Made by a program: the position numbers and the translations under genes. Below, in pieces: positions 10,428 through 17,714 of a DNA stretch of 18,954 bases. How positions within the stretch are numbered: the first letter of the stretch is position 1; every line of letters begins with the position of its first letter. The stretch lies in contig CP070655.1 of assembly GCA_020354945.1 (NCBI GenBank), forward strand, positions 655,970-674,923. Reading direction: 5' to 3'. The DNA comes from Candidatus Omnitrophota bacterium. GTDB taxonomy: Bacteria; Omnitrophota; Gorgyraeia; JABMRG01; JAFGKX01. The notes below the pieces were generated by a model. The model searched no databases and was not told where the DNA came from. It was given only the letters and a program-made list of their open reading frames with translations.

Positions 10428-10673
10428 ATGCCTGAGTTTGACCTTACCATAGCTACTCCCCAAAAGCAGCTTTTTAAAGATAAAGCAGAGTCTGTTAATG
10501 CCCCTTCAGAAGAAGGCTATATGACAATACTAGCCGGCCATGCCCCCCTGCTTGCCAATTTGACTAAAGGCAAAGTCACCATCAAGGCTGCTACCGACAC
10601 AAAAGAATTTGACATAACAGGCGGCTTCATAGAAGTAAATGAAAAAGGCGTAATCATTCTGGTAAAGCAATAA
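10428..10673 (+). CDS. atpC: ATP synthase epsilon subunit, N-terminal beta-sandwich only
   Basis: LTIATP, APSEEGYMTILAGHAPL and ITGGFIEV; stops at 81 aa with no C-terminal helices. Confidence 0.92.
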   Translation: MPEFDLTIATPQKQLFKDKAESVNAPSEEGYMTILAGHAPLLANLTKGKVTIKAATDTKEFDITGGFIEVNEKGVIILVKQ

Positions 10674-10691
10674 TGCTGTAGTTTTCCTTGC

Positions 10692-10720
10692 TTGACATTT
10701 TTATTATTAAATGTTATTTT
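10692..10720 (+). promoter_or_regulatory. Putative sigma70-type promoter for atpZ...atpD
   Basis: TTGACA (10692-10697), 17-nt spacer, TG at 10712-10713, TATTTT (10715-10720). Confidence 0.7.
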
Positions 10721-10726
10721 ACTTCT

Positions 10727-10939
10727 ATGGCTAAGAATATATTATACTACTTCGGTTTAATCACCCAGGTTGGCTTGACTATTATATTCACTCTTTTAAT
10801 AGCCCTTTTTATCGGCCGATATTTAGATGAAAAGTTTGGTCTAAACGGCATCTTTACTATCTTTTTTATCTTTATCGGCATAGGGGCCGGTTTCTTTTCT
10901 GTTTATAAGCAGATTATTGATAAATATGATAAAAGATGA
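10727..10939 (+). CDS. AtpZ/AtpI (ATPase gene 1 / AtpQ-like) two-helix membrane protein
   Basis: QVGLTIIFTLLIALFIGRYLDEKFG...FIFIGIGAGFFSVY matches the family GxxLD pattern. ATG 10727 is preferred because the longer ORF start at 10688 runs through the promoter. Confidence 0.85.
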   Translation: MAKNILYYFGLITQVGLTIIFTLLIALFIGRYLDEKFGLNGIFTIFFIFIGIGAGFFSVYKQIIDKYDKR

Positions 10940-11309
10940 TTTTGCCAGATTCAGGCTGGATATTCTTGCTAAATCTTTCGCAGCCGGGGCAGTTATTATA
11001 ATGGCAGGGTTGCTTTTTAAGCAAAGGCTTTTTTCTCTCGGATATTTAATAGGTCTTTTAGTCAGTATTGCGCATTTTTCCAATATGTACAGCAATATAA
11101 GAGCGATTTCGAATCTAGGAATCAAAAGAGTAAAACTTTTTTTGGCCACAAGATACCTTTCCTTTTATGTTATCCTTGCATTTGTACTGGTGGCAACTTT
11201 TTTAAAAGATAAATCTATGTTTGCCGGCGCAGTGGCAGGATTTTTATCTATAAAGATAGTTATTTATGTAAATGCGTTTATAAGCAAAAGATGGATCCCT
11301 CACCCTTAG
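10926..11309 (+). CDS. atpI: ATP synthase subunit I-like four-helix membrane protein
   Basis: Four hydrophobic segments, G..IG.LVS..HF and RYL patterns, and position upstream of the Fo genes. The start could be 10917 or 10926. Confidence 0.75.
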   Translation: MIKDDFARFRLDILAKSFAAGAVIIMAGLLFKQRLFSLGYLIGLLVSIAHFSNMYSNIRAISNLGIKRVKLFLATRYLSFYVILAFVLVATFLKDKSMFAGAVAGFLSIKIVIYVNAFISKRWIPHP

Positions 11310-11319
11310 ACAATTCAAA

Positions 11320-11359
11320 ATGAATATATAAAAGGTGGGGGATGAATATATAAAAGGTG
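11320..11359 (+). repeat. Exact 18-bp direct repeat (22-nt period)
   Basis: ATGAATATATAAAAGGTG at 11320-11337 and 11342-11359. Confidence 0.95.
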
Positions 11360-11363
11360 CGAG

Positions 11364-11609
11364 GTGGACACAGTAGAGCTTATCAAAATAGTTTCTCTCG
11401 TTGGAGCGGGAGCCTGTATGGGATTTGGCGCAATAGGCCCGGCAGTGGGCACAGGCCTAACCGGCGCTGAAGGTGCAAAAGCAATGGCTGACAGGCCCGA
11501 TATGAGTGTGCAGATAATGAGGACTATGCTTATTGCTATGGCTATAACAAGTTCGACAGGGATATATTCGCTGGTAATTGCGATATTGTTGCTATTCAGG
11601 ATAACTTAA
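11364..11609 (+). CDS. atpE: ATP synthase c-subunit paralogue lacking the ion-binding carboxylate
   Basis: GAGACMGFGAIGPAVGTG glycine-zipper helix and [21 protein letters not shown], collinear with the second c subunit; GTG start. Confidence 0.88.
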   Translation: MDTVELIKIVSLVGAGACMGFGAIGPAVGTGLTGAEGAKAMADRPDMSVQIMRTMLIAMAITSSTGIYSLVIAILLLFRIT

Positions 11610-11650
11610 TCAGTTATCAGTCACCAGTGCTGAAAACTGAAAACTGAAAA
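11609..11650. repeat. Heptamer inverted tandem array, family A
   Basis: atcagtt atcagtc accagt | gctgaaa actgaaa actgaaa a ATG. Confidence 0.87.
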
Positions 11651-12373
11651 ATGAATGTAGCTCAGATAGAAACTATAACTTTTACATTGCCGGGACTCCC
11701 CTTTATTTTTAAGATAAATCCTAACACCCTTCTAACAACCTGGATTGTAATAGCCGCACTTTTATTATTGGGCATTTTAATTAGACAGATTTCTAAATTG
11801 ATACCCGGCAAACTGCAGACAGCGGTTGAATATATACTCGAGTATTTTTTAGATTTTTCTAAGCAGTCAATTGGTGAAGACTGGAAGAAATTCTTTCCTC
11901 TGGTAACGACTCTATTTTTATTTGTAGTAGTATCTAATTGTATATGCGTAATACCCGGAGTAAAATCTCCCACATCGGATTTAAATACTTGTCTGGGCTT
12001 AGGGCTTATGGTTTTTGTTATAGTGCATATTTCCGCCATAAGACATAAAGGATTAGTTAATTATATAAAAGGGTATTTTAGGCCATTTTTTTTCTTTTTT
12101 CCGTTGAATGTTTTAGGAGACCTTGGCAAAGCAATATCGCATTCTTTCAGGCTGTTCGGGAATATGTTCGCAGGAGGAATAATAATTGCCCTGGTCGGCC
12201 CGATTGCATTTAAGGTTGGAGGAATTTTAGCAATACCAAAAGCAGCCACATCCCCAATCGTTATACTGCTTTCAGTAATAGCCCAGGGTTTTTACGGGAT
12301 ATTCATAGGGATAATACAGGCATTCGTGTTTGCGGTATTGGCATTGACATATATTGCTGTGGCAAGGGAGTAA
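11651..12373 (+). CDS. atpB: ATP synthase Fo subunit a
   Basis: PGKLQ, PTSDLN, SFRLFGNMFAG (essential Arg) and IQAFVF motifs. Confidence 0.96.
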   Translation: MNVAQIETITFTLPGLPFIFKINPNTLLTTWIVIAALLLLGILIRQISKLIPGKLQTAVEYILEYFLDFSKQSIGEDWKKFFPLVTTLFLFVVVSNCICVIPGVKSPTSDLNTCLGLGLMVFVIVHISAIRHKGLVNYIKGYFRPFFFFFPLNVLGDLGKAISHSFRLFGNMFAGGIIIALVGPIAFKVGGILAIPKAATSPIVILLSVIAQGFYGIFIGIIQAFVFAVLALTYIAVARE

Positions 12374-12376
12374 AGG

Positions 12377-12764
<388 letters not shown>

Positions 12765-12765
<1 letters not shown>

Positions 12766-12835
12766 ACAGTAATCAGTTTTCGGTCTTCAGTTTTCAGCAA
12801 CTGACGGCTGATGGCTGACAGCTGATAACTGAAAA
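12765..12835. repeat. Heptamer inverted tandem array, family A (5+5 units)
   Basis: aacagta atcagtt ttcggtc ttcagtt ttcagca | actgacg gctgatg gctgaca gctgata actgaaa a ATG. Confidence 0.92.
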
Positions 12836-13315
12836 ATGAACCTAAATTTAACTTTAATACTTCAAATAATAAGCTTCCTTATTTTAATGGGGCTTTTGGC
12901 CAAGTTTTTGTATAAACCCCTGATAAAAATTTTAGAACAGAGAAGCTCACAGATTGCAAAAAACATAGAAGATGCCAAACACTCCCAGGAAGAGGCAAGG
13001 CGATACGCTAAAGAAACACATCAGGCCCTAAATATGGCTAAAGAAGAAGCGTTAAGAATAGAGGGACAAACCCGCAAAGACGCGGATTCGACAAGAAGAG
13101 GTATGCTAAATGAGGCAAAGAAGGAATATATATCTATAATCGATAAAGCCAAAAAGCAGATAGAGAAAGAGACCGATCGCGCAAGATTAAAATTAAAACA
13201 AGATATAGCCGATGTATCTTTAGAGATTGCCAAAAAGATTTTAGAAAAAGAAATAACTAAAAAGGACCACGAAAGATTGATCGATAAGTCTATCAAGGAA
13301 ATCGGCGATGGATAA
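12836..13315 (+). CDS. atpF: ATP synthase Fo subunit b
   Basis: N-terminal TM helix, FLYKPLIKILEQR motif, then a long charged coiled coil. Confidence 0.95.
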   Translation: MNLNLTLILQIISFLILMGLLAKFLYKPLIKILEQRSSQIAKNIEDAKHSQEEARRYAKETHQALNMAKEEALRIEGQTRKDADSTRRGMLNEAKKEYISIIDKAKKQIEKETDRARLKLKQDIADVSLEIAKKILEKEITKKDHERLIDKSIKEIGDG

Positions 13316-13850
13316 TCTTGAACAGCTTCATGAAAGATACGCAAAGGCATTATTTAATTTTGGAAAAGATACCCATGCCATAGATAAAATAATGCAGGAC
13401 ATTGAGACGTTAACGCACATTATTCGCTCAAACGGTGAATTTTCGAGGCTCTTAAGGCATCCCGAAATAGGCAAGGATGAGAAATTAAAGGTCTTAAAAG
13501 CAGTGTCCAGGATATATAGATTCTGTGATGGTTTTATGGATTTTTTAAAACTCCTGATTAGAAAAAATAGATTGAATTTAATACATGGGGTATTTTTACG
13601 TCACCGCGATTATTATGACATGGAAAGAAAAAAGGTAAAAGTATTTATAAGAAGCGCCGTTGAACTTACCCGAGCTCAGATAAATAAACTATCCGGGCAT
13701 CTGCGTAGTTTTTTAAAAGAGGAGATTATTTTGGATGCAGAGGTAGACCCGTCGTTAATAGGAGGGCTTTTTCTAAAAGTTCATGAGAGAATATATGATG
13801 CATCTGTAAAAGGCGTGTTAAACGGTATAAATAAAAGGTTGGCGGAATGA
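13308..13850 (+). CDS. atpH: ATP synthase F1 subunit delta
   Basis: [31 protein letters not shown] and YDAS motifs. Confidence 0.94.
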
Positions 13851-15373
13851 AAATCAAACCGGAAGAAATAAGCTCAATCATAAAAAAACAGATAGAAGAT
13901 TATAAAAAAAGGACAGATACGGCCGAAGTAGGTACGGTTATAGAAGCAGGGGACGGCATAGTTAGAATATACGGCCTTAATAATGCTGTGTCTGGGGAAC
14001 TTTTACTTTTTCCTAATGATATATACGGGATGGCGCTTAATTTAGAAGAAGAAACTGTTGGCGCCTGTGTATTTGGCGAGGACAAATATATAAAAGAAGG
14101 GACCCAGGTAAGGCTAACCGGAGAAGTTGCCCGGGTAAAAGTAGGGGATGAACTTATAGGAAGGGTATTGAATGGTTTAGGCGAACCTATAGACGGAAAA
14201 GGCCCCCTTAAGACTAAAAAAACAAAACCTATAGAGGAAACAGCTCCCGGCGTGGTCAAGCGTCAACCTGTAAAAGAACCTTTACAGACAGGCCTTAAGG
14301 CCGTAGATTCTATGATTCCTATAGGCTGCGGGCAAAGAGAACTTATAATAGGAGACAGGCAAACAGGTAAGACCGCAATGGCGGTAGATACAATAATAAA
14401 CCAAAGAGATAAAGGCATAATATGCATCTATGTTGCTATAGGAGGAAAGAATTCCTCAATTGCCCGGGTTGTAGATACGTTCGAGAAATATAAAGCAATG
14501 GATTATACAATAGTAATAAGTGCCTCTGCCAGCGACCCCACCCCTTTACAATATTTAGCCCCATATACAGGCTGCGCCATAGGGGAATTCTTCAGAGATA
14601 ATGAACGGCACGCCTTAATAGTTTATGATGATTTAACCAAGCATGCCAAGTGTTATCGAGAATTATCTTTGATTCTAAGACATCCTCCCGGAAGGGAAGC
14701 ATATCCAGGCGATATATTCTACTGCCACTCTAGACTACTTGAGCGGGCCTGCAAATATGCCGATGAATACGGAGCAGGCTCATTGACCGCTCTTCCAATA
14801 ATAGAAACACAGGCAGGCGATGTTACTACCTATATACCGACCAATGTTATTTCTATAACCGACGGGCAAATCTATCTGGAGACAAATCTTTTTTATCAGG
14901 GAGTAAGGCCTGCCGTAAATGTCGGTTTAAGCGTCTCCAGAGTAGGCGGCCAGGCCCAGATCAAAGCGATGAAGCAAATTGCCGGTTCATTGCGCCTTGA
15001 ACTTGCCCAATACAGAGAGATGGAGGCATTTGCGCGATTTGGCACAGAACTGGATAAGGCTACAGTGGGAATGCTTGAAAGGGGCAAACGTTTAGTGGAA
15101 CTCCTAAAACAGCCACAATATAGACCAATACCGGTAGAGGAACAAATCCTCATTGTTTTCGCGGGAGTGGGTGGCTATATAGACAATATAGCTGTTGAGG
15201 AAGTTAGCCGCTTTGAAGAAGAATTGCTTAAATATGTAAGGGAAAATTACTCAGGCCTGTTAAGCGAGATAAAGACCAAGAAGGAATTATCGGATGATTT
15301 AAAAGCAAGGCTCGATGACGTCCTGGCAGAATTTAGAGGAAAGTTTATAAGCAGGGGGACAGGTCCCCATTAA
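13847..15373 (+). CDS. atpA: ATP synthase F1 subunit alpha
   Basis: GDRQTGKT Walker [11 protein letters not shown] and [13 protein letters not shown] motifs. Confidence 0.98.
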
Positions 15374-15374
15374 C

Positions 15375-17714
<2,340 letters not shown>

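Follow-up and report, generated by a model that had tools for sequence, protein, structure and literature searches.

A second, glutamate-less subunit c gene in an Omnitrophota ATPase operon: a candidate blank protomer of the rotor ring

The window analyzed here, a stretch of 18,954 nucleotides from a Candidatus Omnitrophota genome, contains an ATPase operon (Table 1) with two genes of the subunit c family. One is a canonical atpE; the other, here called E', is a free-standing single-hairpin paralogue in which the two ion-binding glutamates of its partner are replaced. This raises the question of what such a protein could do for a rotary ATPase.

The E' gene and its operon

E' and the canonical c are the only two matches to PF00137 (ATP-synt_C) in the whole genome (G000; one contig of 1.14 Mb, 89% complete). 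E' matches this family at 58.1 bits (Pfam; cut-off 24) and TIGR01260 barely above the cut-off (45.7 vs 43.95; NCBIfam); only c-subunit families match it in Pfam and NCBIfam, and Pfam gives no match to PF03899, PF09527 or PF12966, the families of the AtpI, AtpZ and AtpR accessory proteins. Aligned by BLASTP to the canonical c (12466-12762), it has 42 identities over 81 residues (52%; E-value 2e-27), with the glycine-rich helix-1 motif and the STGIY stretch common to both. A sequence-only reading of this DNA had described an intact ORF of 81 aa in which both c-type glutamates are replaced, the glycine zipper and STGIY are preserved, and AGT differs from GAA/GAG at all three codon positions, and had placed the gene upstream of atpB, away from atpE; all of this is borne out by the alignment, which is free of gaps and puts Thr30 and Ser63 (codon 11550-11552) at the glutamate positions, and by the location of E' between the atpI-like ORF and atpB. 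Where subunit c has its helix-2 ion-binding carboxylate, E' has Ser63; judged by its sequence, E' belongs to the c family in structural terms yet cannot serve as an ion-carrying c. Its polar loop (R-Q/N-P) reads D-R-P, most orthologues having N-P without the Arg, and it is missing an N-terminal extension of about 20 residues that is conserved in six of the seven partner c proteins aligned.

Table 1. Features of the ATPase operon and of the E' gene, in window positions.
Feature	Position	Strand	Evidence
atpC, short epsilon, beta-sandwich domain only, 81 aa, first in operon	10428..10673	+	PF02823 81.4 bits
atpZ-like small membrane protein (ATPase_gene1)	10688..10939	+	PF09527 57.6 bits
atpI-like membrane protein	10917..11309	+	sub-threshold Pfam: AtpR 21.5 bits, ATP-synt_I 17.3 bits
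Tandem 22-nt duplication just 5' of E' start, 91% identity	11320..11363	+	repeat search
E', single-hairpin c-subunit paralogue, 81 aa, GTG start	11364..11609	+	intact ORF
Codon 30 of E', ACA (Thr30), helix-1 Glu position of two-carboxylate motif	11451..11453	+	alignment to c
Codon 59 of E' (Met59); Asp in canonical c, four residues before Glu	11538..11540	+	alignment
Codon 63 of E', AGT (Ser63), position of essential helix-2 Glu	11550..11552	+	alignment to c
Ser64-Thr65-Gly-Ile-Tyr68 of E', kept; Ser66/Thr67/Tyr70 of solved Na+ c-rings	11553..11567	+	
atpB, a subunit with conserved Arg (SHSFRLFGN)	11651..12373	+	PF00119 166.7 bits
atpE, canonical c: helix-1 Glu, Asp, helix-2 Glu (ESTGIY)	12466..12765	+	PF00137 69.5 bits
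atpF, atpH, atpA, atpG, atpD (b, delta, alpha, gamma, beta)	12836..17668	+	Pfam matches

The neighbors of the operon are pyrimidine genes at one end and, at the other, an adenylosuccinate-lyase gene; the position of the atpI-like gene is conserved among relatives. With an Asp four residues before the helix-2 Glu, the window's c has three acidic residues in or near its site; the single-hairpin c subunits of other phyla have Gln where the window's c has this Asp. Epsilon ORFs are short (81-103 aa) in related operons with and without E', and the epsilon gene comes first in some of these operons and last in others, regardless of E'; we therefore rejected a tie between E' and either the short epsilon or its position.

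Across seven genomes compared, a GGAGG-type Shine-Dalgarno sequence precedes the canonical c in all seven, the Shine-Dalgarno sequence of E' is weak or absent in three, and the GTG start of E' is confined to the window; the weak or absent signals are compatible with, and at most hint at, a minority subunit. Each copy of the duplication just 5' of E' carries a Shine-Dalgarno-like AAGGTG word, and parts of this spacer (11320-11363) are missing from the contigs of one other run. The spacers after E' (11607-11655) and after c (12770-12840) are alike (82-89% identity) and pair as a 27-nt inverted repeat (89% complementary) on either side of atpB-atpE; both are rich in CAGT/CTGA, indel-variable in other samples and unconserved in the related genome G001.

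In G000 (89% complete), for which seven families were searched, RnfD/NqrB, OAD-beta, NuoH, COX1 and cytochrome bd were not found; the genome encodes a membrane pyrophosphatase and two Mrp-like (Proton_antipo_M) proteins (C1:784450-786474; C1:410050-414092). Since these five respiratory or decarboxylase pump families were not found, we infer that the window's ATPase probably runs mainly in the direction of an ATP-driven Na+ pump.

Distribution, conservation and selection

We searched two overlapping genome samples, one of 41 relatives and one of 401 genomes drawn from the phylum, and found E' orthologues in eight genomes (G000, G001, G008, G012, G015, G017, G203, and G300). In all eight, E' lies between an atpI-like gene and atpB, and the canonical c follows atpB; a profile of six E' sequences scores the orthologues at 121-141 bits and the best canonical c at 97. 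As orthologues with recurring substitutions stand in the same gene order in seven genomes besides the window's own, E' is far beyond chance. The G203 orthologue keeps the helix-2 Glu.

Twelve related genomes (G019, G021, G033, G042, G047, G111, G155, G166, G177, G187, G233, and G309) have the same operon type, with a Glu/Asp/Glu c, and no E': atpI/atpZ is followed directly by atpB (G155 being judged from about 740 nt of upstream sequence). Six further loci, whose upstream sequence is cut or unreadable, were counted neither with nor without E'. Because these twelve genomes run the same operon type without it, E' is dispensable. Their c is near-identical to the c of E' operons, so there is no sign of a partner c adapted to E'.

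A search of 5.8 billion proteins with the E' profile gave 1276 matches at E <= 1e-10, the best 120 of which were classified. At least 82 of these 120 are E'-type clusters, with Ile, Thr, Val or Ala at the helix-1 position, and every one of them is without the helix-1 Glu and has Met for the Asp; another 29 have the canonical Glu, Asp and Glu, the window's own c being among them in two forms, and nine are longer (133-145 aa) and were taken as two-hairpin forms. At the helix-2 position, the 82 E'-type clusters among the best 120 of 1276 matches have Ser (53), Glu (22), Ala (3), Gly (3), or Thr (1), that is, the Glu is kept in 22 and replaced in 60. The term "blank", by which E' had been described from its sequence, therefore fits the window's protein but does not define the family. 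Where source names are given, E' family members are called "ATP synthase F0 subunit C" and come from Candidatus Omnitrophota/Omnitrophica. In a library clustered at 50% identity, the top of the list consists of c proteins with 2 to 15 matched stretches, read as hairpins, and three of the 13 matches examined (P0062, P0091, and P0129) are single-hairpin site-less forms. A canonical c lies 0.8-1.2 kb downstream of E' in every locus inspected.

A separate E' branch (L054:3483-3749 and L105:3501-3749) has Ala at the helix-1 position, the Met, and Ser at the helix-2 Glu position; the canonical c paired with it has Asn instead of Asp, and one of the two records bears the title "PVC group bacterium (ex Bugula neritina AB1)". 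In a genome of the window's class, a c-type match at G399:C77:21134-21364 contains one internal TAA.

A tree built from 77 columns, the three trait columns being excluded, and 135 rows (quick IQ-TREE search; 67 of 130 inner branches unresolved) splits the 87 E' rows from the 48 canonical rows by one branch (SH-aLRT 92.8, not starred), which is consistent with one origin of E'. By the tree and by PDB matches, E' falls with the Na+ c subunits of F-type enzymes. Among the E' rows, at least five changes between Glu and non-Glu are needed on the tree, of which starred branches force three. The Thr/Met/Ser group that includes the window's protein is placed next to members that keep the Glu, for example that of G203; the carboxylate state is unchanged across 30 canonical rows.

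What is kept in E' is unevenly spread along the protein. The helix-1 Glu position is Ile in 72 of the 87 E' rows, Thr in eight, Ala in four and Val in three, and never Glu; position 59 is Met in all 87, as against Asp in 30 of 30 canonical rows. Position 64 is Thr or Ser in 85 of the 87, position 65 is Thr in 79, and Tyr68 is present in 84; among class-level relatives, 27 columns never vary, Met59, Ser63, Thr65, and Tyr68 being among them. The invariant residues cluster in the glycine zipper and helix 2. The mean fraction of the top residue is 0.80 in E' vs 0.91 in c for helix 2, 0.73 vs 0.93 for helix 1, and 0.58 vs 0.84 for the cytoplasmic loop, the least conserved part of E'. In known enzymes, this loop of c contacts gamma and epsilon.

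In pairwise comparisons, the NG86 dN/dS of E' is 0.17 between G000 and G001 (dN 0.071, dS 0.423; for canonical c, dN 0 and dS 0.166), 0.054 between G008 and G012, and 0.076 between L054 and L105; this range of 0.05-0.17 is that of the unsaturated pairs, most others being saturated at synonymous sites. At the protein level, E' changes about four times faster than c in the same pairs. The E' CDS is covered by contigs of four other runs from four studies; among the differences listed for them, 74 fewer than the total over the aligned stretch, all indels are intergenic and none falls inside the E' CDS; of nine E' substitutions six are synonymous and the others are V4A, D46N, and R79G, with no listed variant at codon 63. 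E' is real, intact, conserved, and under purifying selection. The check on synteny and dN/dS suggested with the sequence-only reading thus came out in favor of the gene, its orthologues sharing the order atpI-E'-B-E, and the frameshifts or neutral drift that would have counted against it did not appear.

The predicted structure of E' is a two-helix hairpin (helices 3-43 and 45-80; mean pLDDT 80). Foldseek returned no match at E <= 0.001 for this model; its top rows are all c-ring chains, the best being 4bem_A (TM 0.73, E 1.2e-3). By sequence, the best PDB match is c1 of Acetobacterium woodii (4bem_J, E 1.4e-23), with E' Ser63 aligned to the Gln of its blank hairpin 2, and V-type chains are among the weaker matches. 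A complex predicted from three c and one E' scored 0.58, the best of three controls scoring 0.00, with runs agreeing in at least 10% of contacts and a partner pLDDT of at least 76. The mark applied to such predictions is reached by 58 of 80 solved complexes and two of 110 mismatched pairs, and at scores of 0.60 or under by only seven of the 80 solved complexes and by both passing mismatches. The modelling of mixed rings that had been proposed for E' thus gives a positive but weak signal, and because similar rings are solved, it may reflect likeness more than binding.

Possible roles of E' in the Fo ring

We lean, if only slightly, towards E' being a site-less protomer of a heteromeric c-ring that lowers the number of Na+ per ATP. 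The sequence-only reading had raised this idea, next to an assembly factor or an inhibitor, and the present results bear it out in part. E' would insert as a two-helix hairpin beside canonical c, packed through the shared glycine zipper. In the two-carboxylate ring of Fusobacterium nucleatum, one subunit binds Na+ through Glu32 and Glu65, and the subunit next to it contributes Ser66 and the carbonyl of Val63; Thr67 and Tyr70 have a supporting role (PMC3692424). The conservation of Ser/Thr64, Thr65, and Tyr68 in E' would fit a protomer that completes its neighbor's Na+ site: Ser64, Thr65, and Tyr68 of the window's E' would do so on one side of a canonical neighbor, and its own site, with Thr30 and Ser63 for the two Glu, would bind no ion. 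When an E' position passed the Arg of subunit a, no ion would be exchanged, so that a ring with k copies of E' among its n hairpins would carry n-k Na+ per turn, or (n-k)/3 Na+ per ATP. In an ATP-driven pump, a lower Na+/ATP ratio would let each ATP build a steeper Na+ gradient, as PMC9171764 argues for V-type subunits. E' would probably be a minority component of the ring; as it is free-standing, without a covalent link, its copies per ring would not be fixed by the gene.

In favor of a place in the ring, the carboxylate state is labile in E' and constant in the 30 canonical rows, the nearest solved chain is c1 of A. woodii with its blank hairpin, and fused genes of other phyla often contain blank hairpins. 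Against it stand the diverged loop, most members being without the Arg of the R-Q-P motif, the missing N-terminal extension, and the twelve related operons that have a near-identical c and no E'. In Escherichia coli, co-expressed c mutants without the carboxylate are dominant-negative, so a blank protomer could stall the rotor rather than gear it.

An alternative, to which we give a low probability, is a role as assembly factor: E' would serve as a nucleus or c-like decoy, acting with AtpI in ring formation or in docking of the a subunit, and would be absent from the mature ring. Its place between the atpI-like gene, which it directly follows, and atpB in eight of eight genomes would suit this role, as would the diverged loop (the part that would contact F1), the dispensability in twelve related operons, and the weak Shine-Dalgarno signals in three of seven genomes. 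The retained Ser/Thr64, Thr65, and Tyr68 argue against it, since they make sense only beside a working Na+ site, and an assembly factor has no obvious need for a helix 2 that so nearly matches that of c; we also know of no c-like assembly factor.

Somewhat less probable still is a regulator or brake, which would liken E' to a natural dominant-negative c: E' would enter the ring or bind a conditionally, and stall rotation or block an ion leak. The c-like fold and packing surface without a carboxylate are what this reading asks for, the poisoning of mixed rings by the E. coli mutants provides a precedent, and the start codon and upstream region do vary, G000 having GTG and a duplicated Shine-Dalgarno word. 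However, the E' gene is part of the operon itself and gives no hint of being controlled separately, and about a quarter of the family retains the Glu (22 of 82 clusters in the best 120 of 1276 matches); moreover, the rings of A. woodii and of V-type enzymes turn with blank hairpins, according to PMC9171764 and PMC7911925.

About as improbable as a brake is a stronger form of the ring reading, in which E' and c would alternate, or several E' would enter each ring, in a fixed pattern set by specific c/E' interfaces in place of a covalent link. If true, the rotor would resemble the V-type but be unfused, its Na+/ATP ratio would be much lower, and it would serve a respiration-less nanobacterium as a high-gear Na+ pump driven by ATP; the repeated independent losses of the helix-2 Glu would record selection for ever lower gearing, and the Glu-keeping members, with helix-1 Ile, would make rings with two kinds of site.

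We consider it very improbable that E' forms a homo-oligomer of its own with a job outside the ATPase rotor. c subunits do self-assemble, and the loop and N-terminus of E' are unlike those of c; against this are the strict synteny inside the ATPase operon and the canonical c found downstream at each E' locus. A decaying, functionless duplicate, suggested by the loss of the residue essential for c function and by the absence of the gene from some relatives, has hardly any probability left in view of its intactness in eight genomes and at least 82 database clusters, the 27 invariant columns, the low dN/dS and the lack of listed CDS indels in four independent runs, and on the last two points and conservation we ruled out a pseudogene.

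The reading of E' as a blank protomer of the ring has consequences that go beyond this operon. The known routes to a lower ion/ATP ratio without ring shrinkage are gene fusions, as in A. woodii c1 and in the proteolipids of V-type enzymes. A blank hairpin that stands free, if true, would be a third route, in which the number of blanks per ring is set by expression or assembly and not by a fused gene. Ring assembly, control of stoichiometry, and the passage of the a-subunit Arg past a blank position would then be directly testable: the E' family offers stepwise natural variants, with the Glu kept or with Ser, Ala, Gly or Thr in its place, and the small size of the operon would allow heterologous expression. 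The question also bears on membrane energization in host-dependent Omnitrophota with very small genomes. The sequence-only reading knew of no characterized single-hairpin blank form, and the full-text literature that we searched likewise describes no F-type c subunit that is both site-less and free-standing, although one may have been described elsewhere.

E' among related and known rotor subunits

Blank hairpins of another build occur in other phyla. We examined 80 F-type loci from other phyla for c genes and often observed fused c genes of two to six hairpins before the canonical c (loci L055-L131; for example, L062:2657-3430 and L127:2343-3320), in records from Planctomycetota, Lentisphaerae, Cloacimonadota, Hydrogenedentota, Nitrospirales, Desulfobacterales, and others; our literature search found no characterization of such genes (e.g., L062 and L127). 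In most loci, a canonical single-hairpin c comes directly after the fused gene. Many fused hairpins have Gln, Ser or Gly for the Glu, the blank position being mostly Gln, and in 13 of the 64 multi-hairpin c ORFs from other phyla every hairpin is without a carboxylate at the key position. These genes resemble E' in placing blank hairpins beside a canonical c, and differ in being fused and in following atpB, whereas E' is unfused and precedes it. Hairpin 1 of some of them shares an Ile/Met/Glu signature with the E' family. The positions on opposite sides of atpB speak against an origin of E' by fission of a fused multi-hairpin gene, which may still apply as a remote origin. In this spectrum of blank-hairpin proteins, E' stands at the unfused, single-hairpin end.

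Among characterized subunits, c1 of A. woodii (PDB 4BEM) is alike in having a blank hairpin and in coming from a Na+ F-type operon that also encodes a canonical single-hairpin c. The ring of A. woodii contains nine c2/3 and one c1 (PMC9171764), and the accepted effect of c1 is fewer Na+ per ATP (PMC9171764, PMC7911925). It differs in that c1 is a fused four-helix protein with one working site, whereas E' is a free-standing two-helix protein with none; two fused hairpins with one working site, the mark of a c1-type subunit, are not found in E'. The blank position is Gln in c1 and Ser in E', and the c1 gene lies after atpB, the E' gene before it.

The F. nucleatum c (PDB 3ZK1) is a likeness on the side of the working site: the window's partner c has both the helix-1 and the helix-2 Glu, and E' keeps the Ser/Thr, Thr, and Tyr equivalents. 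The differences are that E' is without both Glu and that the window's partner c has the extra Asp. AtpI/UncI and AtpZ are likewise small membrane proteins encoded upstream of atpB, but have no sequence relation to E', and AtpI is an assembly factor and not a subunit according to PMC7911925.

The V-type and A-type proteolipids (c or K; c, c', and c'' in yeast) resemble the E' system in having fewer carboxylates than hairpins, and the yeast V-type ring, in addition, is heteromeric and built from paralogous genes. In a V-type proteolipid, two hairpins are fused and one essential Glu is retained, whereas E' is a single hairpin that keeps none. As a ring protomer, E' would be the free-standing equivalent of the blank hairpin found in c1 of A. 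woodii and in V-type proteolipids.
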